63,993 nt of DNA, filler included, from Perkinsus olseni (GCA_013115125.1; 6 parts of 6 records of this genome joined end to end with filler, not necessarily neighbours in it); one strand, 5' to 3'. Positions 6,248-56,311 are shown, counted from the first letter of the whole stretch. Program-made: numbers and translations. The notes: generated by a model from the letters alone, not told the origin.

Positions 6248-9200
6248 CTATACTCGTCGTTCCAACTCGGGCTCGTGGAAGGCGGTCTCAAAGGACCTCG
6301 GGACGTTAACAACAGGCCTCTCCGGCAGGGATTCGCAGTTCGGATTAGCACTCGGGCACTTGCCGAAGCCAGGACAACAGTCATGCTGGGATGAACGGAC
6401 TACGATAGTGAGCCACGCACTGTAGGACTTGAGGACTTGACTGAATTCAGCCTGGACGTACCTGCAAGGTTCGAGACGTCGTTGCCACTGGGAGCCACTA
6501 CGTGGACTCAAGCTTACTGCACGTAAATTCGGTGACTTTTATCCACCTCGTACTTACGCACCGCTGATGTCACTGTTGGAGGCCTGAAGAGACGAAAAGG
6601 CTGACGGTGCGGAAGGAGTTTCGTGCAAAGGCTTCACTGACCCAGCTTGGTCGACCAACTTTTGAGCAGTTGTGGGCCCCAGACAGGCTTCGACTAATGC
6701 AACAACCAAGGCGTAACTGCACTTCGGCTAGCCGAGATCGATGAGCGCCAAGGGTCGAGAGTACTTGGGGCTGTCCTGATGCGAATCCTCAGGTATGCCG
6801 AAGTCCTCTTGCAGGAATTCTCTGAACGCTGTGGAGCAGATCTCTCTGTTCCTGCACTAACAGTACTCCCCTTCCACTTTGCACTGTGTACAGACTTACA
6901 CTCGGTAAGCGTGGACGATTTGAAAAAGGAGCACGAGCTGGTATAGCTTTCTAACCAGCGGACACCAATGAAGGAGCATATCGGGGCCGTGTTTCTCGTG
7001 AAGGAGAATGCCCGACACTATAGCCTCGCGGTGAACGCCGCCAAACGACTGTAAATTCCGGTATCTGACACTGAGCTATTGAGACAAACGACGCCAGGGA
7101 CCGCTCCCTACAAGAGCCACAGGCACTGCGCTTTGGTGGAAACAATATCACTCTGGACAAGAATACGGCGTATACCAATGTTCATGAAACGATGATCGAA
7201 GTTGTCCGGGAGTACAGCGAAATGAACCTGGGAGGCTCTGATGCTGCAACCCGAGGTCGAAGTCGAGAGCTGAGCAGCTAACCGTCTGTGATAGAATGAG
7301 CTTCCGCCTAATCGACGCCGACATCGAGTTAGTGGCAGTCTGCTGTTGACCCCCGTTCTCGTTCAACGCGTTGTTGGCGTTCCATCTGCAACACGCAACG
7401 CCACAGCAACTATATGGAATCAACTCGGATGGCAGCCTACTGTCTAACCACGGTGAGCCAGAAGTCCGCGTATGTGAGAGCGTCGTATACGCTACTTTGG
7501 ACGTACACATTAGTCCCTGAGGGGAGGGAGGATCAGATAGATCCGAAGTTGTAGCCTACGTATCCAGCAGGCCTTTATAAATGCACTCAACAATCTCGGG
7601 TTGACAGCAAGGAGAGCCCCACAGGCAGAGACCAGGCCATCAGGCAGCCCAGCTGGTGTGGAGGAGTAACGCTGGAGGTCGAGGACGACCGCTTTGACCA
7701 ACCATACGTATCTGTGACATCGCTGAGTGATAGTGAACGCAAGGTAGAAAAAGGATGAGATCAAGAACGGCTTATGACTCATAAGCCGTTCTTGATCTCA
7801 TCCTTTATGACTCATAAGTTATGAGACCTTCGGAATGAACGGCTAAGAGGCAGGTGCGGGAGCACTGTATACCCGGGTATTGTATGCCACTGTAGCGCTC
7901 TAGAAAGATTGGCCCCTCCGAGGGTCTGACGGACGTTCTTGGTCCAGTTGATAAGGAAACTGTTGAAGCACCTCGTTCGTAGACCTACACGAGGGCGGCT
8001 ACAACGCCTCGGAGGTAGGAGAGAAGAAGAGGGTACCCATGAGGCGACGCCATCTAGCATCCTCGAAAGATGACCTCCGCCCCGTACGCTGTTGCTGAAC
8101 ATGCAGATCGTGGAGGAGGGACTCTCGCCCCCAGTAGTTGTCGACTAGCTCGTGAAAGGAGGACCAGTCTAAAACTAGCTTCAAGTCACATACTGGATAC
8201 CTGATAGAGGCCTTCACACAGCTGCTATCATCATCAGCTACTCACCATGCTTGGTTCATTCGTAAGGACACAGCATCGACGTCAAACGCTGTGCCTGATG
8301 GCAGTGCTCAGCCCAGTGTACTGGAAGGGTTTTCGTACCTCTCCATTCTTCGGCGCTGATGTGCTGATTTTGATCTCTTGGTGGGAGGATGGCAGACAGC
8401 AACTCGAGACCGAACTTGGGTAGACGGAAGTAGAGTATAGCCATCAGGACGGCTGAGGACACCCTATATGTCGGGGGGGGGCAGTCGTGTCCGGATCTCT
8501 CCGTAGCCCACTCAGGTATTTCCGGACGTCCACATTGGGCTCAACCTTGTGGTTCATCCAAGACAAAGTATGGTCGAGCAGCTTGTGGAGTAACAGCCAG
8601 ACTTGACGACATGTCCTCATCTTGCGATGAACCAGCAGGACAGCGCGCGCTTCATCACGGGTCAGGAGGCGGCTCTTCGGTGATGATGATGCTCTAAGGG
8701 AGGGTATGAAACCAGGGAATCAACAGTCCCAGCGAGGGAGGCTCATCACCCGGGTGGAGATCTGCTAGCCGGCTGTGTTCCAGATCTGCATGCAAACGCG
8801 ATAAAACGGTCTAGCATACTGGTACGAGCCTTCATTGAACCTTCGAGGGAAGCATGCCAGGGAGGCGACGGGGACTAGCGGAGCACCCTTGAATCGCTCA
8901 AGCCTCTTGCCAGCAGGAGCGGGGTTAGTGGACTCCTCCTCGATAGACTCCACACTGTGTCGCCTGGTTAGGCCCTTCCCGCTGACGATCTTGGACATTT
9001 CAACGCCTAGGGATGATCGCTCGCGTGAAAGTTGAACTCCCTCAGATACCCAGCTCGACATCCTCGCAAAGCGCACTGTGCAACCGTGGATATTCTCTTT
9101 CGCACCGCCTCGCCAAATGCTTCAACAGAGCAATCTACCCCGTGACTGTTGCGCTTGACAAGTCTCACGGATACTGTACGTCAGTTGGTTCTAGCCTCTG

Positions 9201-10885
9201 TATTTTGCTAGACGGCTTCAGTGAATCCTTGGCAGCAGTAACGGAGCCTGCTGAAAGGATCAGTGAAGACGGATGCCGGCTGATGACAGGACCCACCGGA
9301 CTGGTCACTCGCCACGAGGTCGGCAGCCCGAGCCTTGTTTATAGCGCTGCATAGGAGACGCCAGTCGGGCGAGGAGTGCCCGTGGGAACCTGATAAGGAC
9401 GAATGGGGAAGAGAGGTGACTAGGATGAAGCTACGGGAATCCGCTTGTACGGTGGCACCAGTGAGGAGTGTCTCTGGCAGAAGCATCGGGAAGTCGATCT
9501 CCTGTCGTCGGAATATGAGTTGAAGCACCTCGAAAGTAAGAAGCTCCACTTGGGTCGATGAGCAGGACTAGCCCCTCAGCTTTACAGCGTAGTAGGACTG
9601 CTGAACCTCCCAGGGGAGCTTCTCTGCGTGCTCGAGGATGTGATTAGCTAAATTGATGAATACATGTTGAGTCATAACAAGGGAGTCCTCAGAAGGATAC
9701 ACGAATGACCTCGACTCCTGAGCCTGAGCGGAGGCCTCTTGCCACGCCCCAGTTTGTGAGGAAAACCTAGGTCACCGCTGCATCGCCACTATCAGGCATC
9801 GAACTGTTGAAGGCGTCACTTCGGCAAGCCTTGAGATCGCGCTGGATCTCCTTCAAAATGCGCTGTCGATCCGTGGTGGTGGAAGTCGAAGAACCTTGTA
9901 GTGGGTCCTAAGCATGGCCGATCTGAGGATTCACCCACGATGGCCGAGCTTCCTTCCGAGCTCTCGTGCAGCACTCCTAGTCATACCCTGAGATATAGCA
10001 GGTATTAATTCTGGATGGGGACTCCATCTACCTCCACCGGTATCGTCGCCGCCGTTGTGATGGTGGGCGTGGATCTATACTGCGGGGCCTCGAACATGAG
10101 CTCAAGGAGCTTCTTATGGTTAGACGCTATGCTACGTACCTTCAACGGAGGGATGTGAGACTATACCGATGAGAGGACCGACCTGTGCTGGCAGGTCGGC
10201 TGTTATCCTGTTACCGCTGCCCTCATCATTCTCATCATCGAAGTACATGAGGTTATCGAAGTCGACCAAGCGGCTAACCTCACCGAGAATGATCGGCGAT
10301 ACACGCTGGATGCCACGTTCGGTCCCTGAGGAGCATCAAGGTGATGGGGGTCCAGCGGTGAGATTGCTTACTGACACCTGCCGCCAACTGCGACAGAACC
10401 GGGTTGTTCTGGAAGACGAACACGCATGCTACAGTACCCACGATATGGCCAGCGTGCTGGAGATGGCCTTTGAACCTGAAGACACCGATGCCCAGGGACG
10501 GCGGCATGCGCGGTGAGGGGAGGCCTCCTCACACTGATGCCTGGAAGTGATGACGATCCGTAAGCTGCTCATCTAAAGGGGTTCCATCAACAGCTGCTGC
10601 CATAGTGTCCACCAGATGCATCGAGGATCGACGCATGCCCGATATAGTAACAGCGGAAGTGGTCGAGGAGACTGGGGCGTTGCGGTCGGCTACTGAAGCT
10701 CCTGACAGGCCACGCGAGAATCCGAAGTAGAGATGTCGAACACAGAACGTTGAGCCTACTGACGATCTTTGAGAAAGGCACCCACGTCTCGCCGAATATC
10801 CTCTCTGTGTCCCCGCCGCCCTGAATGGCATCACCAGACGTGGTCTTGGTACGATCACGGCAGTGTGCCACGATTCTGAGGTCAT
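6248..10885 (-). CDS. Large multi-exon hypothetical protein (boundaries approximate)
   Basis: A series of minus-strand coding-like exons with GT-AG ends, e.g. SSAVLMAILYFRLPKFG, FNSFLINWTKNV, FDHRFMNIGIRRIL. No family confidently recognised. Confidence 0.5.
7750..7806. repeat. Perfect palindrome, 28-bp arms, 1-nt centre
   Basis: aaaggatgagatcaagaacggcttatga-c-tcataagccgttcttgatctcatccttt. Confidence 0.97.
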
Positions 10886-11012
10886 GGAGGAGAGAAGTCA
10901 AAGCTGCTTTACATACCTAATATGATGGCGATTGAGGTTCTCTAGGGTAGTCCGGAGCTGTATTATCGGCAGAACGCTCTCATCTAGTACCTAGGCACGA
11001 ATGTTCAGCAAT

Positions 11013-11112
11013 NNNNNNNNNNNNNNNNNNNNNNNNNNNNNNNNNNNNNNNNNNNNTTAATTAATTAANNNNNNNNNNNNNNNNNNNNNNNNNNNNNNNN
11101 NNNNNNNNNNNN
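11013..11112. other. Artificial contig linker
   Basis: N44-TTAATTAATTAA-N44. Confidence 0.99.
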
Positions 11113-11810
11113 CTGGACATGTTCCAACTCGCAAGGCGGCATCACAAGCGAATCACACGTGCGGAGGCTGTCCCCACCTCCTCAAACACTTGAGGTGGGT
11201 TGGGAGGTGGGGTTGCCGCTTACGGCAACTTCAGGTCCCGCGATGACCGTCTTCAGACGATGCTTCCAAGGTCGCCAGACGAGGCCTCCACACCGCTGTG
11301 GTACAGCGCTTGTAACGTCCTCGAGATGTCGCGGCCGCTGTTGGGCTCCACTCCCTTGAGGGTTGCGACCGAGGGGTATAATGTAGTCAGAAAGAAGCTT
11401 CATGGATGAGGAGCGAGTGGGAAGTGTCCCCTAGCGAACTGATGCCGGACGACCACAGATAGATGACCGCATCTTTTGTGATCGCTGGTTGAAATCGTGC
11501 TGGTCGTTGTGGTGACACCCAGCGGGTCGTCCGGGACACCCTCCCGGACAGGGCTGCCCTGGCATGGCATGTACCGTCGGGACAGTCCCGACCAGGTCAA
11601 CCCGCGTATTCACCTATCGACTGCGATGGATGGTTTTGAATAAAAATGAGGAAGGCATTGCTGGCAAACGAAGGGACACGAAACAACTTTGTCGAACCAA
11701 CTCGCTCAAGGGATTGTCAGGGCCAGCTACCCTAGCAAGCGCGCCGTGGGGCGGGTATTGTCCCACTGGCTCAACCTCTGTCTCATGAAGCCGCCACCTC
11801 ATGCTCTTCC
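11113..11810 (-). mobile_element. Decayed LTR-retrotransposon integrase remnant
   Basis: Frame-broken motifs in integrase order: VCQQC, RVDLVG, CGRPASVR, GRNPQGSG. Confidence 0.55.
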
Positions 11811-12553
11811 CTCTAGTCTGCTTACTCCACCTTTAAAGTCTCGAATTTTACCGAAATCAGGCGTATGAAATGTAGACCGCTTCGCATTTGAGCTACCTGA
11901 GTCAGCCGCTCGATGGAAGCCTTCCTTTCACATCGTGCTGTACATGATACATTCGTCACGTTTCTCAGCACGAAGGGCGCCGGCCGTCACAGCCCGACCA
12001 GTACTCGCCTCGCTGACCGTTTATGATAGATCGCTGCCCACTGGTCGGCTTCTACGGTCAAGCAACGCACGTGGACACTCTCTTTGTGCCAGGCCGCCAG
12101 GTCTGAGATCAGGGTTCTCACGAGCGTGTTAATGGATGAGCATCCACCCGCTAGCCTCATTGCTGTCCCGCAGTGCCTCGCGTGACTCTAGCGGGCCTAG
12201 TACGCGTACGCTCGTTGCACTTCGATTTCTGTTCCTCATTAAGCGCCGGTCGCTTCTACTCGCCTTCTCACGCGACACATTTCACCATCCATACCAGACA
12301 TCTCATTGATCTCAGGAATCTTAGTAGTCTCAGGAGAATATTCTCTCCATCTTTTGTCATTCGGCATTGATGAGCGAAAGACTTTCGGTACCGAAGAGTT
12401 TCCGACTTCTCTAATTCAAACTTTCGGGAACAACAGCCTCTCATCTCGAGATAATCTCCCATATGCCTGACGTACATTGGAGTCCCAGATGCGGCAGCTT
12501 CTCTCTGACTCAACTATTCCCTATGGCTAGGTACTTTTTGCCCTCCCTCCCGT

Positions 12554-13287
12554 ATGACAATCATTCAAACGTTGCTGATCTCAGCTCTACTACTCGCCTC
12601 TGCGAACGGTCAACTGCCTGGTTTATATACTACCGACCCTGCACCAGGTTTCTTCGCGGCGATCAAGATTAACGAGGATAAGTCCTTGACTCCGTCAACG
12701 ACGATACAAATCTTTATGCCGGACCGTATGGTTTGAGTCGGGTCTCTCTATCCGGCGAGAACTCCATTGTCGGCGACGTGCCTGCAGAGATTAAGCAGAG
12801 ATGCCCTCATGTCGGTCTTGCCGATGGTGACTTTCACATTCTCCACTTCGAGGCTAGTACGCTCACCGTTCCCATTGAAGGTGAGACCAGGGTCTTATCG
12901 AGACATTACGCAGCCCCAGAGCACGGTTACAGGACTCAAGCGTTGGATATTGAACTGAAGATTCTTGATGGTGTCCAGGGGACTATGACTTTCATATGCG
13001 GAGCGAATAAGGCTTCGAGGATCTCTGCGCATCTCGACTATAACTTCGATGAAAGCAAGTATGAGGTGGAGAAGCTCTCCAAGTGGGAGGTACTCAGAGA
13101 CAACCTGCAACGCTCTTGCGGTATAAGCCTGTCGACGGATGACTGCCGGACTGTGGTCTTCAATACCCCGACTACGGCTGTGACTCAGTTCAGAGGTGCG
13201 GTTATCACTTTTCATGAAGAGAGTACATCAGCCGAAGGATTCATAGGCCTTTTGATACTACTTTCGATATTCGGCATCTTTCGTTAG
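12554..13287 (+). pseudogene. Two-domain Cys surface protein, family B; frameshifted, with a GPI-like tail
   Basis: The signal-peptide ORF at 12554 shifts frame near 12685 into ...YAGPYGL...IKQRCP...CGISLS; hydrophobic C-terminus GFIGLLILLSIFGIFR; homologous to 20340..21077. Confidence 0.7.
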
Positions 13288-13599
13288 CCACATTCTCCAG
13301 GGCAAGCAGTGCGGCCTGCAGTGCAGGCGTGCTCGAAGTTTGGTTATGGATCCACATCAGTGACGAGTCCTCATGATGTTCGTCACGATGTAGATCTGAC
13401 ATTTGGCACCAGAAAATTTTCTAGTGGGGATGTCGTTAAAAATTTCTGTTAAAGTAGCTCAGCCAGTTCTGTAGCACATTTTTACTTCAGAGCTTAGACG
13501 CCCCTCTCACTATTCAGTCAGGTTCCGTTACCTTGGCATTGTTGTTCTCTCAACAGCTTTGCCAACAGGAACAACTTCGTGGCTACGGCCGCTCGGCGT

Positions 13600-15340
13600 T
13601 ATCAGTTACAAGTCGTCTGATGTTACTAGATTTTGGAAGTTAAAGATGCTTGTCTTGACTTGAGTAAAGGATAACGTACAACTGAGTTCTCCAGTAGAAC
13701 ACGAAGTGATACGTGTGTTTGACCTTATGAGGACATCCTCAACCGGTGTGACATCACTACCCCAAGCGAGTATTGCTACTCCAAGCAACGAATGTAACTT
13801 CAAGCATCCAGAACTAACCTGAGCACTTTCGTCCGGGGCAAGCACGTATAGCGCCTGGATCAGACCAATTAGGCCAACCGAACGAGCGCAATGCGACCCT
13901 ACTGGATAAGCTGATCTTCTCCCTCGCCTGATCTTCCTAGTCTAGTACCAGTGGACATCACTTCTTACGGTCTGTCCATAAGAAGTGAGGTCCACTGGTT
14001 ACTTGCCCACTGGCAGTCCACGATGAGTTCGAGTGCGATGATCGGACTCGAACTCATCGAGCTCATAGCACTGGTAGCCCTCGGTTGGATGACTCATTGA
14101 ACATGAACTAGTTCTTCGTCACAGTACTGCAAGATTCTTCGTCGTTTTGGTCTGCGTCGTCCGGGACTACTCGTCCCTAGGATGCTCGTAGAGATTTAGA
14201 CCCAGCTTTCGGTGCTAGAATTGGGAGCAGTTGTCAAACTCACAATGTCAACGTGATCCTGCAACCACTGTTACTCGTTCCTCTCGGTTAACGCTTGCCG
14301 CCTTCGAGCCAGGATTAAACCCTGAGGATTTGCTACTCTGAGATTCTTGTTCTCGTAGCAACGTCGTAACAGTAGCAAGTCCGTGACTATTGTGGCTTGG
14401 CATTATCAGCTACATTTAGGTCATCTCTTTGATTAGATTTTTGTTCGAGTTCGAGATAATGCTCATGCAACACGGGTCGTGCTAAGATTTAGGGGGATGT
14501 CTGAATGCAGTCCGTCAGCCCAATCTCAAATTGGCAATCCCAGAGCTCACGCACCCTTTCAGCGAGGGAAACACCAATTGCTTGTTGTGCTTAGTATTGA
14601 TGAGCACGGTATAGGTCAGTCCGTCCCCGACTGTAGAATCTAAAGTGTGGATCGACGTCGTTCAACAACGTTGTGCTTCAGAAATCCAATATTGTCGCAC
14701 TACGCCGAAAGGTGAGAAGCACTGCAATGCCTCTTTGCATCGGTTTACCAAGTATTGGTAGCGCCCGCACTCTCGAGTTATTGTTGACTACGATACTCCC
14801 TTTGCAATGGCGAACGCGTTAATGGTAACAAGATAGAAGCGATAGAAGTTGAGGATACAATACCGAGACCACATAGCTGCAGTGAATACCATTCAACTCC
14901 TTCCTTGTGGATTTACCAGTTATTCCCCAACTTTCTAGATATATGGAGGTTTGCCTGCTTGTCACAGGCATCTCACGTAGTCGAAACCTGTGACGCTTCT
15001 GAAACTGTCTTCCTTGCCACCAAGCTGTCAAACATGTCACCCGTTACGTGTTAGCACATCCCACGAAATGGTTTCGTGGGCTAACCCGGACAGCGTAGCA
15101 ATGACCCTTTGTGGAGACAGACCAGAAGCCCTCCATAATACTAGAAAAAAAATCTTCCCCTGGGGGAGCAAGTTTCCAGGAACACCACGAGGAGGTCTCC
15201 GAGCACGTTCCCACATTAGTAAGTCACAACCCGTTCGTCCTTGAACTTGCCCCATGACTGGACCTACATACTGCACGCCAAGTATGAAGACGTCTAACCG
15301 GAGGTAGGTCGAAGAGCTGCAGCTCCAAGAGCTCACCTGT
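13600..15340 (-). mobile_element. Possible heavily decayed non-LTR retrotransposon RT
   Basis: Scattered RT-like peptides (GIHCSYVVSVLYPQLLSLL, LSA*CDNI, WLQDHVDIV) with many stops; weak. Confidence 0.3.
14021..14059. repeat. Palindrome, 19-bp arms (1 mismatch), 1-nt centre
   Basis: cgatgagttcgagtgcgat-g-atcggactcgaactcatcg. Confidence 0.9.
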
Positions 15341-16213
15341 CTTTCACTATCGAGTCGATTTTCATTTCTTTGGCATCCTGGTTCTCACGAGCTCGTTTAC
15401 AGTAACAATGTTGCGGCTTCGGCCTATCGTCTACGCTTAGCTCACCGTGATCAACCATATTTTAAACATGAAGGCCGCTTGTGTCGAGCTAGCGACGTAG
15501 AGGGAATCTGCGTCAAAGCTTTCATGCCGATTGCAGTAGAAAGAGGAGACACATCGAGGGGTTGAGCTCAGATCGCTGGATCAGCCTGTGAGAGCGAGTG
15601 GCAGGCTGCGTAACGTTTTTTTCCTGTCTGTAACTCGCTCTTTGCGATAGAGGAAAGATTGCAGAGTTGTACAGATGCGATGATTCGGAACAGGAGGCTA
15701 GCCTGCCAGCGCGAAGGGGTTGTGGGCCATTCTGGACGATACAAACTCGGACAGTGGCCGACAGCCACTGACCGCTTCTTACACTCTGCCAAGTTATACA
15801 GTAGATAACGTAGTATATAATATATACTAGGATACAGTATCTATTGGGACAGAATCAACTAATACCCAACCGGTCACGCGATCTGTCCCAACTGATACGG
15901 TACCAGCCTGTGATCTCTATGAAGCTTCCAAGGGTTCACAGGCAGAGCATCTGTTAACTGAAACTTCTCACATTACACTGAACAAGATAATTACTCCGAC
16001 GGTAAGGATGTGTGCAACTCAGAAAAGCCTGAGTGAGGAATGATACGAGCTTGAAGTGGCCGAATCGGTCTACAGTCCCAGCAGCGGCTGCACGTGCGCG
16101 GGAGAGACGAGCTCCTGTCGCATACCTGGAGCTTCACCTTGTTACGCGAAAGTACCGGCCAACGTAACTTTCTTGAGAGGCCTTCAGATAACATCTGGGC
16201 CCGGATGCGGATC

Positions 16214-16700
16214 GCGAGTTCGGGCTCACACGCGTGAGTTAACTCACCTCACGAGTTTGCCTCTCGAGCCTAATCAGCCGCAGAGTTCGAATGCGAGAGT
16301 ATGAGGACGAACTCACGAGTCTCAAGCATGAGATTGGAGCTTGAGTTGCAGTTCCCGAGTAAATAGCCTGAGTTGTGAGCCAGAGTTCGATCTCTCGAGT
16401 CCACTCACTGCGTGAGCTCAACTTTTGAGTCGAGCTCACCTTCTCCGAGTAAGCACTGCCGACATCGAGTAAAACCTCATGCAAGTTCACGCTCGCGATT
16501 CATGAGTAATATCGACAATTTCTGAGTTACTAACTCACTGCCGCTGAACGTCGGGAGTCTACTTTTGAGTTGGACTCTGAGCTTGAGCAAAAATGCAACT
16601 CACACCACGAATCACACCAACTTACCGTGCAAAACCGGTACCGGGGCTTTTCCCAAGGGGTGCAACACGCTGAACCTGAGTTCGCAGGCTGAGCAAGTAC
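16214..16700. repeat. Degenerate GAG(T/C)/(A)CTCA short-motif array
   Basis: gagt, gagc and ctca recur densely, often about 10-20 nt apart; no convincing protein. Confidence 0.5.
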
Positions 16701-16799
16701 AAAAGCGCGCGCCGAGGGTCTAATCATGCAACATCACGAGGCCCTCCTAATCCGCTACGCGAAAGTTATTTCATGCAAGTGGCGTATAAAATAACGAAC

Positions 16800-16850
16800 A
16801 AAAAGGAGCCTCCGAGGTTCGAACCCGGGTGCAGAGCGTCGCAGGCGATA
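16800..16850 (-). pseudogene. tRNA 3'-half relic (T-arm/B-box plus oligo-T)
   Basis: Minus strand reads ccggg-TTCGAAC-ctcgg-aggctcc-TTTTT; the complementary 5' acceptor strand is absent. Confidence 0.45.
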
Positions 16851-17805
16851 ATTTACTTGGTGAGTTGGAATGTTCAGAGTGCTCAGAAGCAATATGCTCA
16901 GACACAGAGTGGGCAACTGAGTAACTCTACTCTGTGAGGCTCACAGTGTGAGCCTGAAACGCTGTTCAAAAGCCAGATCAACCTCCTGAATCATTAACTG
17001 AGTCAATGCCTCAGAGTCCAAAGGTGATCCCTGTGGTCTGACTGTGCTCTGATTTAATGGCTGCGGCTCAGAGTACGAAATCAGATAATCAAGGGGTTTA
17101 TTTCTTCACCTGAGTAGACGGAGAGAGATCGAACTCTGGCTCAGGCGAAAATCATGATCCGCATACGGGCCCTGGACTCCAGATTCTGGAGCCACGAGCG
17201 GAAGAGCACGCCAACAGTCAGAAGGGGAGCGGACAACGGAGAAGTACGCGGTTCGCAGTCCATTGTAGTTGTCTCCTTGAAAATTGTACGGAAACTCGCT
17301 CGGAGGGGGATAAAGAAGTCTCTATGCTTCGCTCAACTCAGTATGGTGAGTCGAACAGCAGTGGTGCATAGATCGGTTGATCTGCGTGATTCGATTCTGT
17401 CCGGCTGACGACTGGCTCCTCGCCTAACAGACGACGCCTCTCGAAGAAGATCGTTGCGTTGCTACAGCCATGCGAGCGCTGCAAGTCTACGATTGCTTAC
17501 TCTGCATTGCGGCCCGTAATTTGCGGTAATTGGGTTCGCAGCCGGCTGCGTGGATCGTAGCTCAAGTATCTTTTGATCTGCTCGATCCTTGAGTGCTCTA
17601 TCATCACTAGTCATAGCAGGTCGTTATTATCGGCTGCTGGCTGTATCAATTCATCACCCCTCCGTAACACCTGCATGCGTGCAGTGCACGCCGTACTTGA
17701 GTCTCAACCGGAAATCTGAGCGCTCATTGAAGCAGTTGGGACTCAATCAGTCAACCATTGGGAGGCTTACTCAACGACAGCTCATTTCGCGTCTATCTCT
17801 CTCGT

Positions 17806-19241: not shown

Positions 19242-19274
19242 GTCCTTGTGTGTCGAGACTCGACACACAAGGAC
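19242..19274. repeat. Perfect palindrome, 16-bp arms, 1-nt centre
   Basis: gtccttgtgtgtcgag-a-ctcgacacacaaggac. Confidence 0.92.
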
Positions 19275-21077: not shown

Positions 21078-21088
21078 GCAACTTATCA

Positions 21089-43258: not shown

Positions 43259-43311
43259 GTCGCAGTTGGAATCGATTACTTTGGCGCGCGCTAACTCCGA
43301 GACGCAACGAC

Positions 43312-45580: not shown

Positions 45581-45821
45581 CACGACTCGTACACCGAAAA
45601 CTCGTACACTTTCATTTCGTACACGACTCGTACACTGAATACTCGTTCACCCCTTGGATCCGTACACCGTCATTTCGTACATTTGAAACTCGTACACATA
45701 ATACTCGTACACATAAAACTCATACACGTAAAACTCATACACATAAAACTCATACACCGTCAACTCGTACACGAGCACGACTCGTACACTATGCTGCTTG
45801 AGTCGCATTTTTGGGCCGCAC

Positions 45822-48800
45822 TGTAGAACGCAACCAAGGTAAACGTGGTAGATAAGTTGGGAATCAATGGTATGATAGGAATTGGCTAATGGTAGACAGT
45901 ATGTAGCTTAATAGTAGCGCTCGCCCTGACACAACTCATAGTCTTGTGGTATAACATCTCCTCCTCTTCGAAAAAAAATAGGATATATTCTAAAGCAGTT
46001 TAATATCGTAACCGTGGACAATCACAATATTATCATCTGATTTCTTCACTTGGATTCTATTATCTCCTAATTGCTGTACGACAACGGCAGGCGTCCACCG
46101 CCTTTGAAGTTTAGGAACATTTCCTGAAATCCTGACCAACACATTAAGGCCTGGTTTCAACTGAGTCTTAGTCGGAGACTTCATTATCTCTTGTAAATAG
46201 CTATATGATTCATGACACTCTATGGGAACTTCAGGGCGCATACTCGGGGAAAACTTGAAAATATTAGTATGTGGACTCTCTCCTCGCCGTTGAGGAGTTA
46301 CATTGTACTGATAACAAGCTCTATTTGCCAAATTGAAAAACGTCGCAGTAGAGGCGTTCCCTGTATCAATATGTGCTCGTAAATATTCATTCAAGTATCT
46401 ATGCCATCGTTCTATCTTTCCATTACAAAAACTAGCATGAACTGGATTCAGCAGATGCACTATATTCATCTTCTCCAAGAATGCTTCTATCTCTTTTGAT
46501 TTATACTGGGATCCATTATCCGTGTGCAAGACTAACGGTCGTCGATGGAACGTATCGAAAATTGATTGCAAAAAATTTCGCACATCAATTGACGTTGGCA
46601 TATTCAGACATGGTCGGACGACTACATAATCTGAATAGCTATCTTTCGCTGTTATAACATAATAACGGCTCGATCCACCTGATTGACTGTACGGTCCACA
46701 GATGTCGGAATGAATCCTATCCCAAGGTCTCGGCGCTGTTTTTATCGAAACTAACGGGACCAACGGTTTCTTATCGTTTGGGAAAGCCTTCGCCATGGAA
46801 CACGTTTGGCACTTATAAAGATTACATTCTGATGCCAAACCTGGCATATCAACCCATCTCTTGAGTTTGGCGAATTGTGCAGCTTTACCTTCATGGTCAT
46901 GCGTCAGTGTCAATAACTCCTGTGCCTTATCTCGAGGGATGCTAATACGTTTGTCGTGCACCTGAAATTCACTTAACCATAGCTTCAACTTTTCTGACCG
47001 TTCTTTCTCCTCATTTTCTATACGTGTTGCTGCTAGCACTTGTTGACCATCCTCTTCGCTCTTAGTAGCGATGTCACGTAGTGTTTGGATGAATTTCTTG
47101 GATAACCGTGGATGCAATCTCGATGGCACATCTGCCTTATTATTTTCTGAGGACACATAGCTCACATTAAGGGTTATATTAAATTTCTCGACTATGTCAT
47201 CTATTAATTGCAGTCTGCCTTCAATTGCTACCTTACTCATTCCTTTTATATTTTGCCATTTTCTTTCCTGTTTCCGTGTCAACCAGTGTTGTAACGAAAC
47301 ATTATCTACCCGTAAGTGAACTTCTTGCTTCTTAATATTATATGCTTTCATGTAATCCACCACAAGTTCCATACCTCTGAGCGCTGCTTCTGTTTCAGCT
47401 ATATTTATATGTCTCCTACAATTTTTTGGTCGTAACCATGCTCTATCCTCCACTACTACACCATCAAAACACAATACCGCAGCTAATGCTACAGAACTTG
47501 AATCCGTAAACAGCTCCCACTTCGATACCGGATTTACGGACCATACTCCCTTTACTGGATCCTCCTTTTTGACAACCTGTGCTAATGAGACCCATAATTC
47601 CTTGACTTCATCATTCAAAGGGTAATCTTCATTCTCACAATTTTTCGATCTTTCTACTGCGCTTATTCTTGTGAGCATCGCGGCAGTTACTCGTAACCAT
47701 CCCGCTACGGGATATACTGGCGTTAATCTTCCTATGTACGAAGCTAATTCCGCTTTCGTTTGTGGGATTTTTTCTAGTATGTCAGCTATTGGCTTTCCTC
47801 TACTCCAAGTTCCGTCCTCATTTATGTGTATTCCTAATACTGTCGAACCGTATAATGGCTTAGGAGGTTTTATGTCAAACGAGTTGTTCGCGAGTTCCTT
47901 TTTCACTATAGGAAAGTCTTTTTTATTCACTACCATGTCATCGACAAATTTGTAGACTTTTCGCTTGGTTGGTATTCTTTCTATTATATAGTCCAACGAT
48001 TCATCAAGCGCTTTACCGCTGATATTACAACCGAATCCGGCTCTAGTCATTACATACATGTTGTCTTTACCTTTCAAATGAGGGAATCTTACGCATTGAT
48101 AATACGTTTGTTCTTTCTTAACTCGGATCATCATGTAAGCGTGTTTTATATCTATGGCGAGTGTCTCATTCGGGTCTAGCGTTCTCCAAATCCTTATCAT
48201 TTTTTGGCAGTTGATTGGTTCTCCGCTTGAATTCGGCATACTTTCTATTCGAGAGTTGAGCCAAGTGTAATCAAGTACGACCCTCACTGGTGTAGTTCTA
48301 CCTAGTGATACAACTGGCATCGTCGTTATATACCCTTTCACTTTACACCGCGGAATTTTCACGAAATATTTCCTATCTATCATATCCTGTACGGACTTGT
48401 GAAATAATTCTAGTTCATGTGGGGTTAACTTTTTCATTTGTTCTTCATAATGTGGTGGTCTATATACCATATCTTCCGGTTTTTGCTTCCATATCCATTC
48501 TACTTCCCACATATACTTACTGTCATCTTCATCATTCTTTTTCCGTCTTAATATAATATCTTTGTTCTGAAGGACTACATTATCGACATGCTGAACCGAT
48601 GTTTCCTCGCTGCGCTTTCGTTTCATTACTCTTTGATTTTCTCTCGTTTGCTCCACTGGATCGCCTCCGCTTACCATACCGGCTATCCACGATCCCATAC
48701 TGTTAACTTTCAACGTTAACTGTCCACACGCTCTCAACCAATCCATACCGAACAACGCCTGTATTTGAGTACTTCCCATGCTCAAAATGCTTTCCTGATT

Positions 48801-50368
48801 GACTATCCATGGTTGAACTCCTACTCCGCACAATCTCATTTCGAAACTATCAACTGCTTGATATGCAGTAACTGATCCTGTGAGCGTTGTCAACTTAAGT
48901 TTTTTCTGGGCTTGAGGGATCAAGGAAATACCTGTAGTATCACCAATATATGACGCAACTGTTTCACTGACTACCGAGATCGTACTACCTGTATCGATCA
49001 TCGCCAAGAACTGTTTATTCTCACTCTTTTTACTTGGGCGATCACACCTGAGAATCACGGAGAGATAACGGCTCTCTTGGGTGCAAAGCTCGCCTTCAAT
49101 CACTACGTTCTCAGTGGTCTTATTATTACGCACATTCGAAGGACACTGTGCAGACCTGTGCCCTCGTCCATTGCATGTAAAGCATCTGATGGACCTTTCT
49201 CCTTTTCCTATGGTCTTATAACGGAGACCTTTGCCCTTTCCATACCAAAACCCTTTGCCTTTTCCTTTCGCCCCTTTAGCTTTTCCTTTGCCTTTATACC
49301 CGTAAGCAATAGCAGACACATGCTGGGCTTCATCTTCTGGGGGCTTAGCAACAACAAATCCTTCTGATAACGTCAAACAGCCTTGTACTATATCTCGCCG
49401 ATTCTGCCACAATTCGCGCCACTGTGCGCGAATGGCGGCAAGACCGGGTAAGTCTTGCGGAATTCCATTCCAATATTGTAAGCAGGCAGTCGCATTGACC
49501 CACGTACGGTCTGGACGCACACTCGGGGGTATGGCTGCTGACGCGAGCCTTTGTAGCTCCGTAAGGTACTCTCCAGGAGTTTCACCAACCTTCATCCTCC
49601 TTGTGGTTAACTCCCGCCAGGCCGCAAAAGAACATGGGCCATACCTGTCCAGAAGGACTTTTTTAGCTTGCTTGTACGCAGTCTTGTCATCAATACCACT
49701 ACCAACCTTGACATTCGCACTTACAGTATTATAAGCCGACCCTCTCAGGTTCAACTTCAATAGAGCAAGGCGCTTGTTTACCGGTAGAAATTGTGATAGC
49801 ATCTCCATAGACTCTTCAAATTTCTGTAACCATTGTACCACATCTTCGCCATCATGACCACCGGAGAAAGGGGTCGACATAATGTTGTAGTTCTTCAACG
49901 AACCATTTAGACCATTAGTAACCGATGATGTTGAAGTCAACGACGGCACGCTTTTACCATCATTAGAGTCACTCTTCTGATTAGTTGATGTGCTGCTGGA
50001 GCTCTTATCTTTTGGCACCTGCTCCTCAGTGTCTCCATCGGCAAGATGCTGTTCACGTAGGGAGTCTTCTGTTCTTGCTTTACCATCATCGCCGTCCTCG
50101 ACGACATCTTCTTGTGTTTCTGCTTGCTCACGCTGTTCACTCTCCTGCTGCTCTTCTTCCGGAGTCGCGACTGCTATGAAGTTCTCGAAATCACCAAGCT
50201 CGAGGTTTAAGTCGTCAAAGGGTCTGGGCACCATGTAGAACGCAACCAAGGTAAACGTGGTAGATAAGTTGGGAATCAATGGTATGATAGGAATTGGCTA
50301 ATGGTAGACAGTATGTAGCTTAATAGTAGCGCTCGCCCTGACACAACTCATAGTCTTGTGGTATAACA
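45822..50368 (-). mobile_element. Intact Ty3/Gypsy-order LTR retrotransposon (4547 bp)
   Basis: Identical 135-bp TGT...ACA LTRs (45822-45956, 50234-50368); CGCAC TSD; PBS-like TGGTGCCCAGA; PPT gaagaggaggaga. Confidence 0.97.
45990..50234 (-). CDS. Single-ORF Gag-Pol polyprotein
   Basis: CCHC knuckle CFTCNGRGHRSAQC; protease IDTGS; RT IDIKHAY/FVDD; RNase H FTDSS..HINIAE..VDN..NKAD; integrase HSDICGP/HTDNGSQY/NGKIERW. Confidence 0.96.
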   Translation of the reverse strand: MVPRPFDDLNLELGDFENFIAVATPEEEQQESEQREQAETQEDVVEDGDDGKARTEDSLREQHLADGDTEEQVPKDKSSSSTSTNQKSDSNDGKSVPSLTSTSSVTNGLNGSLKNYNIMSTPFSGGHDGEDVVQWLQKFEESMEMLSQFLPVNKRLALLKLNLRGSAYNTVSANVKVGSGIDDKTAYKQAKKVLLDRYGPCSFAAWRELTTRRMKVGETPGEYLTELQRLASAAIPPSVRPDRTWVNATACLQYWNGIPQDLPGLAAIRAQWRELWQNRRDIVQGCLTLSEGFVVAKPPEDEAQHVSAIAYGYKGKGKAKGAKGKGKGFWYGKGKGLRYKTIGKGERSIRCFTCNGRGHRSAQCPSNVRNNKTTENVVIEGELCTQESRYLSVILRCDRPSKKSENKQFLAMIDTGSTISVVSETVASYIGDTTGISLIPQAQKKLKLTTLTGSVTAYQAVDSFEMRLCGVGVQPWIVNQESILSMGSTQIQALFGMDWLRACGQLTLKVNSMGSWIAGMVSGGDPVEQTRENQRVMKRKRSEETSVQHVDNVVLQNKDIILRRKKNDEDDSKYMWEVEWIWKQKPEDMVYRPPHYEEQMKKLTPHELELFHKSVQDMIDRKYFVKIPRCKVKGYITTMPVVSLGRTTPVRVVLDYTWLNSRIESMPNSSGEPINCQKMIRIWRTLDPNETLAIDIKHAYMMIRVKKEQTYYQCVRFPHLKGKDNMYVMTRAGFGCNISGKALDESLDYIIERIPTKRKVYKFVDDMVVNKKDFPIVKKELANNSFDIKPPKPLYGSTVLGIHINEDGTWSRGKPIADILEKIPQTKAELASYIGRLTPVYPVAGWLRVTAAMLTRISAVERSKNCENEDYPLNDEVKELWVSLAQVVKKEDPVKGVWSVNPVSKWELFTDSSSVALAAVLCFDGVVVEDRAWLRPKNCRRHINIAETEAALRGMELVVDYMKAYNIKKQEVHLRVDNVSLQHWLTRKQERKWQNIKGMSKVAIEGRLQLIDDIVEKFNITLNVSYVSSENNKADVPSRLHPRLSKKFIQTLRDIATKSEEDGQQVLAATRIENEEKERSEKLKLWLSEFQVHDKRISIPRDKAQELLTLTHDHEGKAAQFAKLKRWVDMPGLASECNLYKCQTCSMAKAFPNDKKPLVPLVSIKTAPRPWDRIHSDICGPYSQSGGSSRYYVITAKDSYSDYVVVRPCLNMPTSIDVRNFLQSIFDTFHRRPLVLHTDNGSQYKSKEIEAFLEKMNIVHLLNPVHASFCNGKIERWHRYLNEYLRAHIDTGNASTATFFNLANRACYQYNVTPQRRGESPHTNIFKFSPSMRPEVPIECHESYSYLQEIMKSPTKTQLKPGLNVLVRISGNVPKLQRRWTPAVVVQQLGDNRIQVKKSDDNIVIVHGYDIKLL

Positions 50369-50436
50369 CGCACGCTGAGAGCAATGCCGGAGCGAAGGAA
50401 GTAATATTATCTATAGAGAGCGAATTGTTTGCGCCA

Positions 50437-50530
50437 ACCTGTGAGTAAATATTCAGTAGTGTAAGTGGTATGGAGGTTAAGGTAACGGGTTACCAATCCA
50501 AAGGTCGTGGGCTCGATCCTATGTACAGGT
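50437..50530 (+). other. tRNA-like segment inside the TIR element
   Basis: acctgt/acaggt closing stem, A-box-like tggtatggagg, and aggtc-gtggg-ctcgat-cctat T-arm-like region. Confidence 0.45.
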
Positions 50531-50594
50531 CCGGCGTTGCAGGGAGGAGATAAATCGCGAAGAGTAGGCGGCAGAGCGCCGGCGGAGCCGGCAC

Positions 50595-50649
50595 GAAAAT
50601 TTTTTAGGCAAGTCGCGGAGCCGCTCCGCGACTTGCCCAAAAAATTTTC
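50595..50649. repeat. Palindrome, 27-bp arms (1 mismatch), 1-nt centre
   Basis: gaaaattttttaggcaagtcgcggagc-c-gctccgcgacttgcccaaaaaattttc. Confidence 0.95.
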
Positions 50650-50916
50650 ACTGGGTGTACGAAATGACGGTGTACGAGTTGAAAGTGGGTGTGTGTATGA
50701 AATGACGATGTACGAGCATTATGTGTACGAGTGTTCTGTATGCGAGGTTTATGTGTACGAGTATTTTGCGTACGAGTTTTACATGTACGAGTTTTCAGTG
50801 TATGAGTTTTCCGTGTACGAGTCCTCAGTGTACGGGTATTCGGTGTACGAGTCAGAGGTGTACGAGTATTCGAGACATGAGTCGAAAATGTACGAGTTTT
50901 CGGTGTACGAGTCGTG

Positions 50917-51316
50917 AACATCCCATGCCCTCGGCGTCGATGATCCCCAGAAGGTCCCTGATCTTCTCGCGGAGGCCGTTGCAGACCTTCAAGCATAGAT
51001 CGGGATCTTCCTTGTCTAGGGTTCGACGTAGTATAAGCGTTAGCTCAGACGATGATCGTATCCTCGTCGCAGAGTTCGCGATAGCACGCTCCGAGAATGC
51101 ACTAGTGTTCCCATACATGCCCGCGAAACCGCAATGGCCCTTGCCATTTCCAGAAGAACCACGACCCTTAGACGGCAGACGACCACCAACACCCTTGCCC
51201 GGGAGACGACCACGCCCTTTACCGCCACCCTTACCTTTCCCTTTGGCAGTGCCGGGTTTCCCGGCAGCCGGGTTCCTCGAAGCTGAAGACGCTCCGAAGC
51301 GTTTGGGCGGAGGCAT
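50917..51316 (-). pseudogene. ZNFX1: ZNFX1-like copy B, first coding segment (KG-rich N-terminus)
   Basis: MPPPKRFG...DAEGMGC joins in frame to YTPEGMRVF once 45581-50916 is removed. Confidence 0.75.
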
Positions 51317-51607
51317 GAAGCACGAGCAAACTGGGGAGCAGGGGGATGACTAGAGCACAAATCCGGGAAACACTGAATGCTCTCACATGTACCGTCGAAC
51401 GACACTTATGCCGTTTTCTCGCTACCGGGACCCACCACTTTGAGAAACACGTATCCCAGCAGACTAAAAGAAATGAGAATGGATGATTCGACAGGCGCTG
51501 ACAATACGGTTCCTTAGTCAACCGTTCGCAACTCGCAGATGAAGAAAATTGTTGATGATCGAGCAGCGACTGTCCATCAAGGACAGGCTCAGGAATCCAT
51601 CGTTGGC

Positions 51608-54600
51608 TCAGGCCCCTCCCCCCATACCTGGCCAGTTCGGCCTTGCACTGACGCCGGTGAAATCTGCCACGAAGGTGTTCCCAGCAGCAGAGCTGTGATT
51701 GGCACCACCGATAACAGCTCCGCATTCAGGACAAGCTGCGGCCGTCATGGCCCCACCACAATCGGCAATGAAGTAGGGGTGACCATTAGGGCAGGCGAAC
51801 CAGCGTCCAGCAGCTGCACCCCAACCGTCAGATGACATAGCTTCGTTGATGGCGTGACGTTCTTCCAAGGTCACTTCCTGTCGGAAGGCTTTTAATAGTT
51901 TCCCCTTCACCTTGGCCAGGAGTGATAGTTGAGTCTTGACAATGTTGTTGTACCTGAGATAGCATGATGCTCAAAACTACACCGCTGAGACCAAAGAGCA
52001 ACTCAACGCGACGACGAGGATGACTAGACAGTCAACGCACTCTAACAGTTTGAGCAGATAACGGCCACCGCCTTCAGAGTTGCAGAGTACTCGAGCCTCA
52101 AAGTAGGCTCCCGTTATCGTGCCAATCCGACGAGCCTGTCTTCGTGTATCGGCTTCGATGCTAGGGAAATCAAGTATGCCGTCCCACCTTGGAGCGGTAA
52201 AGATCGTCTTCTTGCACGTAGGGCAGGACCTCAGCTGGATAGCCTTATGTTCACCCTTGGAGGCATCATAGGTCATGTACCTGTTAGAGAACACAGATGA
52301 GGCCTCACCCTATAAGGGATCGAGATTCGGCTTACGTATCAAGGCCATCGACGAAGAAGGTATGTCCACAGTCGGGGAGCATGTAAAGCCTTGAGCCGTC
52401 CTACAGTGCCGAGCCGATAGTGTCCAACAAAATGGTGTCCTCGACCTCGGGGAAGCAGCGAGGGCAGGTCGGGCATGGCTCACCGCACAGTCCTTGGCAG
52501 GGATGACCACACTCCAGTTCGAGCGTGCAGTGGGCGTTGCAGCGAGGCCTCTCACAAGGCTCATGGCACAGCTTCTCACACTTATGATGAGGGCACCGCC
52601 AAAGGCAGGGCTCACGACACGGTATACAGACCTCGCAGCAAGCTTTGCTGCAAGCATTACCGTGAAGGCACCGCATACCGCACTCGCGTTCACAGAGCTT
52701 CGTGTGGGGCTCTCCACACGCCTCGTTACAACTATGCCCACATGCCAGCTCTTGATCGCAAGCTTCCTCACATTTAACCTTGGTGTGGTCATGAGGAGGG
52801 GAGCAGAATTGAGGGCAGGGGTGGCCACAGGGTAAGACCACTTCACACTGTCTTCTGCATTTCTTCACATCATTGCAGATCTGCTCCACGTCATGACCAC
52901 AGGGAGCCTTCACCGTACGCTTATAAGTGCACTGCAAGTCAGCAGACTTGGACTTGTAACAGTGTGTCGACAACTCGTGGCCGCAGGGGAGACGTACCGG
53001 AACCATCTGCAGGCAGCGCCTCTCTATTGGATCATCTCGCATGAAGCAGCGAACGTCCTTCTGATGGCCGCAGGGAAGACCGACCGACACCAACGCCTCA
53101 CACGGGGTCTTGCAGATGTCCATCGGCTCAGCATCTGCTTTAGTGCACTTGAAGCAGAGGTTCGGGCATTTGTGGCTGCACCCTGCCGGTCTGGGCCGAT
53201 TGCAAGGCCTGTCGCACGTTACCATCTCATGATCAAAGACATGACAATTGAGTGGGCACCGATGACCACAGGCCGGGAGTAACATCCTACAGGGCTCGCG
53301 GCAGCCACCGTCACGAACGCAGTAGAAGTCATTCGGATCGGAGATGTTCTCGAGGTTAGCCGGATGGACACGACACTTCAGGGTCAGTGCCGGCCCAATG
53401 CGACCTTGCTGACGTAAGCATTGCAGCACAGCCTTCCAGCTCTGTGAGGGATCGAACATCTCGGAGTGGCCCAGAATATACAGTCCCTCCTTCGCTCTAG
53501 ATAGCGCCACGATGACCCGATTCTCGATACCAATAAATCCGATCTTCTTGGCCTCGTTCGAGCGGACCAGCGACAAGATGACCACTTTGTTTTCCTCACC
53601 CTGGTAGTCGTCGATGGTAGCCACCCTCACCCCGACGACATCTTGCTTTTTGTTTGAGCGGATCTCGGGGTTCAAGTAGCTGCGCATGAGACGCTTCTGG
53701 CCAATGTAAGGAGTCAGAAGGGTGATGTCTTCCGGCTGATACTGCTGAGCGGACCAGATAGAAGGCAAGACTGGCCGCGAATCTCGCTTCATAGTCGTTC
53801 TTCTTGGAGGTGCCCTCAAACGACTGTTCGGATTGGCGATGGTCGAGGAAGTAGACGTCAGTCGCCACGCCCCCGACTCTGTCATACTTCTTGACCCTCT
53901 CGTGGTCGATAAGCCCATCCACGTAGAAGTGCTTCACCAATTGGCTGGCCTCAGGCCGCATACGGAGTTGAGTGGAGAGCTTGGCGAAGGGGACGTTGAG
54001 GTTGATGAGTCTCTCGAAGAGGGAGATGTCGAAATGGTTCTTCCGGCATAACTCGAAGGCGTTTATCTTCGGTCGTAACTGCTGATGGTCACCAATCATC
54101 ACCACGTGCTCCAACTTGGGAGAGGAGAGACTAGAAATAAGCTGACATTCTAGCAGCTCCCCAGCCTCTTCTATGATGACCACTCTCGGCGCCAGACGAT
54201 GCACCAGATCTCTATTGAGGGCTGCGTAGGTACTGGTCATGCCAATCAGCCTCGACCCGCGGCATGCTCGGAAAAGCAAAGCCTTGCGATACTGCATGTA
54301 GCCCTTGCCCGCCTCTTCGCCCTTCCTATAGATGTCTCTGAGCTTCGCCTTCATTGGGCCTTCGAGGGCGGAGCCAACAGCCTCAATCAATCCCTGGCGG
54401 CTACGCCGAGACGGAGCTGCTTGGTTCACACAGATGTTGCCAGCCTCGTGAACGGCCACATGACAAGCGGCCGCCACCACTGTAGTACCGAAAGATACCT
54501 CCAGCCTCTTGCGGATCTTACGCTGAAAGCTAGCCGCCATGCTGAGCTCGTCCCTCCAAGAACGGTCGATCTCCAGGGCATCCACGTTATCATCATCAGG

Positions 54601-55287
54601 ACGCTCCACAGCAGCGGCCACACGGGCACCGGCAGCCTGATCGATTCGTAGACCAACCCTAGCGGCCCGTCTTCTGTCACCCTCACCAAAGATCTGTTCC
54701 CCAATCATGCGTTCTTGCTCGACGAGATCGAGGAGATCCAAGTCGAGCTCGTCAATGTCGATTTCGGTGTTTCTGCGAGTGGGAGTGCCGAACTCGAACA
54801 AGTGATCGACCAGCCGATCAACCCCGGCCTCCATCTCCTCGGACAGGTCCCTCCTCTGGCGTTCCGGTAAACCCTCGAACGCTTCGTATCCGCGGGATGC
54901 CTTGCCAGGGTCGAACCGGTTGGAAGTCTTCACTCTGTGCTTGACATCGAACCCGCGCTCGTTCAACCAGGCCTTCTCGAGACCGGCCATCTGCCTCTCC
55001 GTCCCATCCAACCAAATGCGCAGCGACTCCATCGCAAACTCGGCAGCATAATGGCCAAGTCGAGCGAAGCTCATCTTCCAACCAACGGGTGACAAGATAC
55101 GCTGGAAGAGGCTGAAGGGCATGTAGGCTAGGAGGCAGACCAGTTGAGCGTCACCACCTTGATAGAGGGCGGCCACTGAGTTCAGAGTACGACAGGTGGA
55201 CTCCAGCTGATCTTTGAAATCCTGACGCCGCTGGTAGTCTTCGCTGTTCTCCCTCATCTTGGCACGGACATGACATTCCTGGAGAGG
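51608..55287 (-). pseudogene. ZNFX1: ZNFX1-like helicase copy A, C-terminal half
   Basis: SF1 motifs IIEEAGE, IGDHQQLRP, SLFERL, QLRM, TIDDYQGEE and VALSRA; NF-X1 Cys repeats; RZ finger WFACPNGHPY. Frameshift at ~53748 and in-frame TAG at 52401-52403. Confidence 0.9.
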
Positions 55288-55360
55288 GTTATACCACAAG
55301 ACTATGAGTTGTGTCAGGGCGAGCGCTACTATTAAGCTACATACTGTCTACCATTAGCCA
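55288..55360 (+). mobile_element. Third (partial) LTR of the same family, opposite orientation, at the contig end
   Basis: gttataccacaag...ccattagcca is the exact reverse complement of LTR 45883-45955. Confidence 0.92.
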
Positions 55361-55460: not shown

Positions 55461-55741
55461 GAAGCCTCGTTGCCTGTGTCCTCCTTGGATGGAGCCTTGT
55501 TGTCTACGTTCCCTGGACCCTCGTCGCCAGGTTCCTCTAGAGAGGGAACCTCATCCTCGTCAATGAATGGGATAGTATCGGGGATAGACTCGAGGTAACC
55601 GCCGGATTTCTGCTTCGGGGGGACGGGCTCTTTGACACGTGTATCCACAGGTGGAGCGCTGTTGTGTGGCTTTTTGAGAGATCCAGCCTCGGTGTGGAGG
55701 GCGAGCAGCGCCAATAAGAGTAGCACGATACGAGTGAACAT
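55461..55741 (-). CDS. Secreted low-complexity protein, N-terminus only
   Basis: MFTRIVLLLLALLALHTEA signal peptide followed by a P/E/D-rich region running into the gap. Confidence 0.65.
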
Positions 55742-55912
55742 AGCGATATGGACGAGGGAACTGATACCGACCGGGTAAGTACAACGCTGGAAGAACAAAT
55801 ATTACTCAGGAAAATTCAGATTGTCCCGAAATCAAGAACTTCTTGCGTTCTAAGCCATTTCCTTAACTCATTCTTCGCGCTCGTCTTTCCAATCGGTCAA
55901 CTCCCGGGTGAA

Positions 55913-55966
55913 GTACAAAATCCAAGGGGAAGGTACAAAATCCAAGGGGAAGGAACAAAATTCAAG
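55913..55966. repeat. 20-bp tandem repeat (~2.7 copies)
   Basis: gtacaaaatccaaggggaag x2 plus gaacaaaattcaag. Confidence 0.85.
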
Positions 55967-56252
55967 TGAGCGCGTGCGACAGGCAGGCGAAGGCGACAGA
56001 AAAAGGCCTGAATCGTGGGTGAAGGCAGGAACGGGATATGTTTTACCCTCAGGTGGACAAGTGTACCCCTATTCAACATCTAGCTCGGAAATCGAACCAT
56101 TAAATTCGAAGAGGTGATCGAAGTTGGGTGTACGAATCTGAAACGGGCATATCTATTCCGCACGTAGAACTTTCTGTTTCGTAATGGGACTTTGAGTTTG
56201 CACGTTGGGCGTTCGTGAGTTCCACTTCGATGTGAGCGATGTTTCAACTTCG

Positions 56253-56311
56253 AGAAGAGGAACTTCAATTGCACGTTGGAAGTTCCAACGTGCAGTTGAA
56301 GTTCCTCTTCT
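56253..56311. repeat. Palindrome, 29-bp arms (1 mismatch), 1-nt centre
   Basis: agaagaggaacttcaattgcacgttggaa-g-ttccaacgtgcagttgaagttcctcttct. Confidence 0.95.

Follow-up and report, generated by a model that had tools for sequence, protein, structure and literature searches.

How does a genome come to hold long palindromes that are unrelated in sequence to one another and all turn on exactly one unpaired base? The question is posed by a stretch of 63,993 nt from the protist Perkinsus olseni (GCA_013115125.1), which we refer to as the window and which consists of six contig pieces of ca. 11 kb each, with linkers (N44, TTAATTAATTAA, N44) between them. An initial annotation of this DNA had listed five such palindromes and had proposed for them either a common generating mechanism, i.e., fold-back template switching or the repair of hairpin ends, or else a function as cruciform, nuclease or resolvase site, or small-RNA precursor. 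We have carried out a census of palindromes, and of a class of 22-nt scars that turned out to be linked to them, in this 64-kb window alone. In our view the long palindromes are probably the excision footprints of a cut-and-paste transposon that generates an 8-bp target-site duplication and leaves the flanking DNA capped by hairpins.

The five listed palindromes are all present with exactly one central base. Two of them have perfect arms, 7750-7806 (centre 7778, 28-nt arms) and 19242-19274 (centre 19258, 16-nt arms), and three have a single mismatch, 14021-14059 (centre 14040, 19-nt arms), 50595-50649 (centre 50622, 27-nt arms) and 56253-56311 (centre 56282, 29-nt arms). The last one can also be read with 36-nt arms and three mismatches over 56246-56318. 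In addition, we found a sixth long palindrome at 13947-13999 (centre 13973, 26-nt arms with three mismatches) that had been overlooked because its innermost pairs are decayed. The sequences of the long palindromes are indeed mutually unrelated, and in four of the six the arms carry between one and three uncompensated mismatches.

The geometry stands out clearly against shuffled sequence. Counting only perfect arms around a spacer of one base, 19 palindromes reached 7-nt arms, compared to a mean of 3.5 and a maximum of 7 in 40 dinucleotide shuffles, five reached 9 nt (shuffle mean 0.22) and four reached at least 12 nt (shuffle mean 0). Perfect-arm palindromes in the window with a spacer of 0 or of 2–8 bases showed no excess over the shuffle level. 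When mismatches were allowed, in a census that merges the spacer classes into odd and even lengths, there were 13 odd-centred and no even-centred palindromes at a score of at least 9, with block shuffles giving about 0.3 of each, and six against none at a score of at least 13. The excess is real and the single-base centre is not a product of chance.

The second kind of evidence comes from shorter structures. The window contains scars of 22 nt that can be written from a single 8-mer X (bases x1 to x8) as x1-7, followed by the reverse complement of X, rc(X), and then by x2-8. Six copies are perfect and five have one mismatch, while the chance expectation for a perfect scar, with its 14 forced pairs, is by our arithmetic ca. 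0.0002 in 63.5 kb. The perfect ones are found at 16932-16953 (X = CTGTGAGC), 19129-19150 (X = GAGCCCAG), 37932-37953 (X = GCAAATCG), 38714-38735 (X = CTATCTAG), 56313-56334 (X = GAGGTTCC, inside the palindromic tract of an older footprint) and 56867-56888 (X = CCTATGGG). Those with one mismatch are located at 7804-7825, where the scar forms the final part of a longer footprint (7750-7825), and at 11570-11591, 19384-19405, 20226-20247 and 56522-56543. Two short palindromes pointed out in the initial annotation are real and are simply halves of such scars: 11576-11592 (8-nt arms) is the second half of the scar at 11570, and 19129-19143 (7-nt arms) the first half of the one at 19129. As a scar with two overlapping odd centres has a length of 3N-2, the 22 nt give N = 8 and an offset of one base at each end.

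The scars and the long palindromes are linked both by position and by internal logic. Three of the six long palindromes lie at no more than 150 nt from a scar, a proximity that was reached by 73 of 20000 random placements. Furthermore, in all six perfect scars and in three of the six long palindromes (7750, 50595 and 56253) the complement of the central base supplies the last letter of an 8-mer that is found again where the excision model predicts it; for the long palindromes, we calculate that ca. 0.008 exact 8-mers would be expected at such a place over all six. Remnants of the 8-bp duplication also flank the joint, since x2-8 follows the palindrome at 7819-7825 and at 56338-56344. In three of the perfect scars (16932-16955, 19129-19152 and 38714-38737) the second palindrome extends to 9-nt arms, the two bases past the scar being the complement of x7 and x6. 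This amounts to 3 of 12 scar sides compared to an expectation, again by our arithmetic, of ca. 0.75, a marginal difference, perhaps because a flap that can pair makes repair easier.

One example in which the whole footprint can be written out is that of 7750-7825. It reads A + x1-7 + rc(X) + rc(A) + x4-7 + rc(X) + x2-8, where A is the 21-nt flank 7750-7770 and X (CTTATGAG) is made up of the 7 nt that precede the centre, with the complement of the central base added. The formula rebuilds all 76 nt without a mismatch from the flank and one 8-mer, the 57-nt palindrome 7750-7806 being the first part of the footprint, and the 8-mer test detected in it the pair p = 7778 and q = 7818. The palindrome at 50595-50649 has the mirror image of this architecture (50582-50649) and lies in the interior of a foldback-type element. 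Here a 9-nt direct copy of the centre (GCGGAGCCG) is found just upstream and outside the arm, at 50582-50590. A partial copy is found as well next to 19242-19274, the palindrome that sits between the scars at 19129 and 19384, where 10 nt of the right arm (19263-19272) are directly repeated at 19277-19286.

A more complex situation was found at 56246-56349, where a single 8-mer (X = GTTGGAAC) accounts for a double-hairpin footprint. In the left palindrome the centre, 56282, is the complement of x8 and the arms are 29 nt long (36 nt with three mismatches). The right one is centred at 56337, the complement of x1, with 12-nt arms that include one mismatch, and the next 7 nt are x2-8. The palindrome centred at 56337 appears once the 22 nt of the perfect scar 56313-56334 are reduced to the 8-mer of that scar (GAGGTTCC), an operation that removes 14 bases, i.e., the amount that one insertion plus excision adds. 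The paired centres argue that both hairpinned ends of a single 8-bp site were unfolded, to 29 and 12 nt, and joined, the internal scar marking a later insertion and excision by the same kind of element within ca. 25 nt of the first. The neighbouring palindromes 13947-13999 and 14021-14059 were considered as the two hairpins of one event in the same way, and this was rejected as the inferred 8-mers disagree.

The process that would produce these structures can be outlined as follows. The transposase would cut one base into the flank and close both flank ends into hairpins, each with a single unpaired base at its tip, as in hAT-type chemistry; work on Hermes reportedly places the nick of hAT transposases one base inside the flank. 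The host would then nick each hairpin 3' of the tip, between 8 and ca. 29 nt away, and so free a 3' tail carrying the flank in reverse complement, so that the two tails would read x8'..x1'(a'..) and x1..x8(b..). Incision of the MRN/CtIP type takes place at ca. 15–25 nt from a capped end. In the usual outcome the tails would anneal by the complementary 8 nt that each owes to the duplication, and trimming of the flaps would leave x1-7 + rc(X) + x2-8. Annealing followed by flap trimming gives the same 22 nt at any nick distance, which explains the uniformity of the scars. A long tail that was instead kept and filled in would generate a long palindrome with the complement of either x8 or x1 at its centre. 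Such a tail may have been joined end to end with the other opened hairpin, as at 56246-56349, or re-primed on the partner strand by 2 nt of microhomology, as at 7750-7825 and probably at 50582-50649. In the first of these, the untrimmed tail was apparently re-primed on a TT of the partner strand and then copied the remainder of the scar. Templated re-priming does seem to add extra copies beside two of the palindromes.

Of the two mechanisms named in the initial annotation under a common origin, it is the repair of hairpin ends that agrees with the odd parity, the 8-mer logic and the proximity of the scars. Priming by a free fold-back does not agree with a one-base centre. When folded as free strands, the four hairpins that pair up to the centre open their innermost pair and have a 3-nt loop, and the other two have a loop of 3 or 5 nt. 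A free strand, with loops of at least 3 nt in all six folds, cannot pair down to a loop of one base, and the tip was therefore most likely closed covalently and not primed by snap-back. What we infer from these data is the transposon as such, the hairpin-opening enzyme and the sequence of events during repair. The data support a chemistry like that of hAT transposases but do not place the culprit in the hAT superfamily.

Footprints of this general kind are already known, as hAT-type excision footprints with palindromic (P) nucleotides. Those of Ac/Ds, a hAT system studied in plants, Saccharomyces cerevisiae and Candida albicans, are described in the relevant passages of PMC5873905 as palindromic P-nucleotide insertions that arise from the resolution of hairpins on the flanks and have at their centre the complement of the base adjoining the transposon. 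Like in the Perkinsus case, there is an 8-bp duplication, and microhomology is usual at the joints. Long arms are known there too, with a maximum of 20 nt in S. cerevisiae, and 66 of 140 footprints have arms of at least 3 nt (PMC5873905). However, the Perkinsus scars are natural and fixed in a genome and not revertants recovered in an assay, their arms reach 29 nt (36 nt with mismatches), and the commonest product is one of 22 nt (7+8+7) that is not described in those passages of PMC5873905. Another difference is that no hAT element was seen in this window. What is unusual is the length of the arms, compared to the 20 nt of the yeast assays (PMC5873905), and the uniform 22-nt product, together with the density, six long palindromes and 11 scars with no or one mismatch in 63.5 kb. 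A full-text literature search, which did not cover supplements, found no paper on such scars in Perkinsus, and reports of introner palindromes in Amoebophrya (PMC7789003) and of CRISPR in P. marinus (PMC8062965) have no bearing on these palindromes. Passages of PMC3706591 list Dada elements for P. marinus and name no hAT element for Perkinsus.

Two other systems share part of the picture. Partial copies beside 7750-7806, 19242-19274 and 50595-50649 resemble the microhomology re-priming of polymerase-theta-type end joining. Templated end joining of this type gives on its own neither one-base centres nor an 8-mer unit. In V(D)J recombination and in Transib transposons, hairpins on the flanks are opened off-centre by host nucleases, which leads to palindromic additions (P nucleotides). 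The hairpin made by RAG or Transib is not known to have an unpaired base at its tip, and the resulting palindromes would be of even length; here, in contrast, no class of even palindromes exceeds chance. Both V(D)J recombination and Transib are mentioned in the discussion of a paper on the Mutator-like transposon Muta1 (PMC5499845).

Several observations weigh against an excision origin, or at least against a hAT as the agent. The 8-mer logic was not recovered by the 8-mer test in three of the six long palindromes (13947, 14021 and 19242), two of which carry arm mismatches and may be old. Among the open reading frames (ORFs) of the window no Pfam match to DDE, hAT or BED domains was obtained, neither in 92 of the 116 stop-to-stop ORFs of at least 100 aa, the 24 left out mostly overlapping the FGGY, WD40, gypsy pol and helicase genes, nor in 14 ORFs of at least 150 aa with an ATG, GTG or TTG start. 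A search for a resident element, defined by terminal inverted repeats (TIRs) and a duplication of 2–10 bp, gave two weak matches with an 8-bp duplication compared to 0–1 in displaced controls, none of them above the controls. The target pattern of Hermes and Ac is nTnnnnAn. Only three of the 13 inferred 8-mers, a small sample, have T at position 2 together with A at position 7, and of the 26 bases at positions 1 and 8, 21 are G or C. Finally, the comparison of contigs described next, made over one of the six pieces, revealed no empty or filled allele.

This comparison was made at the contig level with Logan contigs over the second contig piece (11113-22120), in three runs (X1, X2 and X6) that correspond to three samples from two studies, and in a divergent one (X7). 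In the first three the contigs span the palindromes at 13947-13999, 14021-14059 and 19242-19274 with no differing letters and no gaps, so that three of the six long palindromes are present in independent read sets, and they also span the scars at 11570, 16932, 19129, 19384 and 20226 without differences. These are near-identical samples that share one allele at the loci, and one of the three runs may be the source of the sequence of the window itself. The contigs of the divergent run have zero cover over 13682-14782 and over most of 17352-19553 and hence lack cover at the loci. An exact 25-mer from the arm of the 7750 palindrome had no match in metagenome contigs. Elsewhere in this piece there is an odd-centred palindrome with a mismatched innermost pair at 15060-15080 (CCCACGAAA-TGG-TTTCGTGGG), around which contigs of the three runs have alternative joints that skip 15002-15110 or 15002-15142, and which may be another allele of a scar region. 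The comparison also revealed a repeated segment at 11847-12213, with a contig depth 6–8 times that of its neighbours. There, the contigs of the three runs have 32 extra letters between 11967 and 11968, including the reverse complement of 8 letters of the window straddling that point, and a contig of the divergent run skips 11954-12148 (195 nt). The differences within the segment may come from paralogues.

If hairpins were repaired as described, their maker could still have been something other than a hAT, either a Mutator-like or foldback transposon or another, perhaps domesticated, transposase that cuts one base into the flank, an alternative that we find rather unlikely. Muta1, a Mutator-like (foldback) transposon of Aedes aegypti, does form hairpins on the flanking DNA and makes duplications of 8–9 bp, and its TIRs, built of 12-bp subterminal repeats with 3–4 bp linkers (passages of PMC5499845), resemble the foldback-type element present in the window at ca. 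45575-50923, with its 34-nt TIRs and arrays of a 15-nt subterminal repeat. Nevertheless, according to the same passages more than 90% of the Muta1 excisions in yeast are precise, and its hairpin ran at 43+43 = 86 nt with no one-base offset reported, on a gel that may not resolve one base, while the local foldback element is flanked by a direct repeat of 11 and not 8 nt. A more specific version would combine a non-hAT maker with a host that lacks hairpin opening close to the tip, and that cuts between 8 and 29 nt away and closes the break by annealing of the tails or templated re-priming. We regard this version as doubtful, if worth entertaining; were it true, the genome would be a dense natural readout of alternative end joining and transposon traffic a steady source of new long inverted repeats.

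Explanations that dispense with a transposon fare worse. In the first of these, the palindromes would have formed by snap-back synthesis, or by template switching between strands, at ordinary breaks or at replication forks. Synthesis of this kind is known to generate inverted repeats, and the extra templated copies at 7807-7825, 19277-19286 and 50582-50590 do look like re-priming with short microhomology. Both are quite improbable here, since neither offers a reason for the strict odd parity (13 to 0) or for an 8-nt unit whose edge bases are complemented at two centres, and no free 3' end can pair as close as one base to the turn. The hallmark to be expected of snap-back, a variable spacer of at least 3 nt with no preference of parity, was not seen, with spacers of 0 and 2–8 at the level of chance. 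That the palindromes are functional, as cruciform or nuclease sites or as precursors of hairpin small RNAs, is very improbable in spite of single-strand folds that are very stable (-16.9 to -30.7 kcal/mol, z-scores between -6.8 and -14.7). We found nothing in support of this part of the initial annotation: the sequences are unrelated, the mismatches in four of the six palindromes are not compensated, the geometry is common to the short scars, and there was no Rfam match at the gathering score. An artefact of library preparation or assembly is hardly credible. Amplification and some assemblers are known to produce inverted chimeras, and our support comes from contigs and not from raw reads, but separately built contigs of three samples from two studies, and not a single dataset, carry the three palindromes unchanged, and an artefact would not encode the logic of an 8-mer duplication.

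If the palindromes are indeed excision footprints of a hairpin-forming transposon, each of them would record one visit of the transposon and the way in which the break was mended. A count over the whole genome would then provide, with no need for an experiment, the spectrum of the ways in which hairpins are opened and ends joined in a protist where this kind of repair is unstudied. Excision could also create in one step perfect inverted repeats of 55–59 bp that may serve as starting material for hairpin RNAs or fragile sites. In annotation, labels such as regulatory element, small-RNA gene or assembly error should be avoided for these palindromes.

Regarding the rest of the window, the contig pieces correspond to 1-11012, 11113-22120, 22221-33218, 33319-44291, 44392-55360 and 55461-63993, of which the first, second, fifth and sixth carry the long palindromes. 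Pfam scans of the ORFs indicate a eukaryotic gene content, with matches to Ty3/gypsy pol, FGGY kinases, WD40 and a superfamily 1 helicase with an RZ finger, and fragments of LRR, M14 peptidase and UBC domains; ARAGORN found no tRNAs in it. The element at ca. 45575-50923 can be described as a foldback or Mutator-like non-autonomous element. Its 34-nt TIRs (45580-45613 and 50884-50917) are 97% complementary, its interior has inverted arrays of the 15-nt subterminal repeat (GTGTACGAGT plus 5 nt), and the 11-nt direct repeat (CATGCCCTCGG) lies 5–6 nt outside each end. Nested within it, on the minus strand at 45823-50368, there is a compact Ty3/gypsy long terminal repeat (LTR) retrotransposon with identical 134-nt LTRs (TG..CA), a 5-bp duplication (CGCAC) and one gag-pol frame of 1429 aa. 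A third copy of the LTR, partial and inverted, is found at the end of the piece (55258-55360). The foldback element adjoins a ZNFX1-like helicase gene (51611-55347, minus strand) with AAA_11, AAA_12 and an RZ-type zinc finger.

Adjoining the M14 peptidase fragment there are odd palindromes with 10–11-nt arms (31738-31771), in which (ATG)n faces (CAT)n; these are of low complexity and were not counted among the scars. Two tandem genes for FGGY carbohydrate kinases are found on the same strand at 25296-28939. Both are interrupted at the same position, where the N domain gives way to the C domain, by a gap of ca. 30–50 nt, which is in each gene either a small intron or a shared frameshift.

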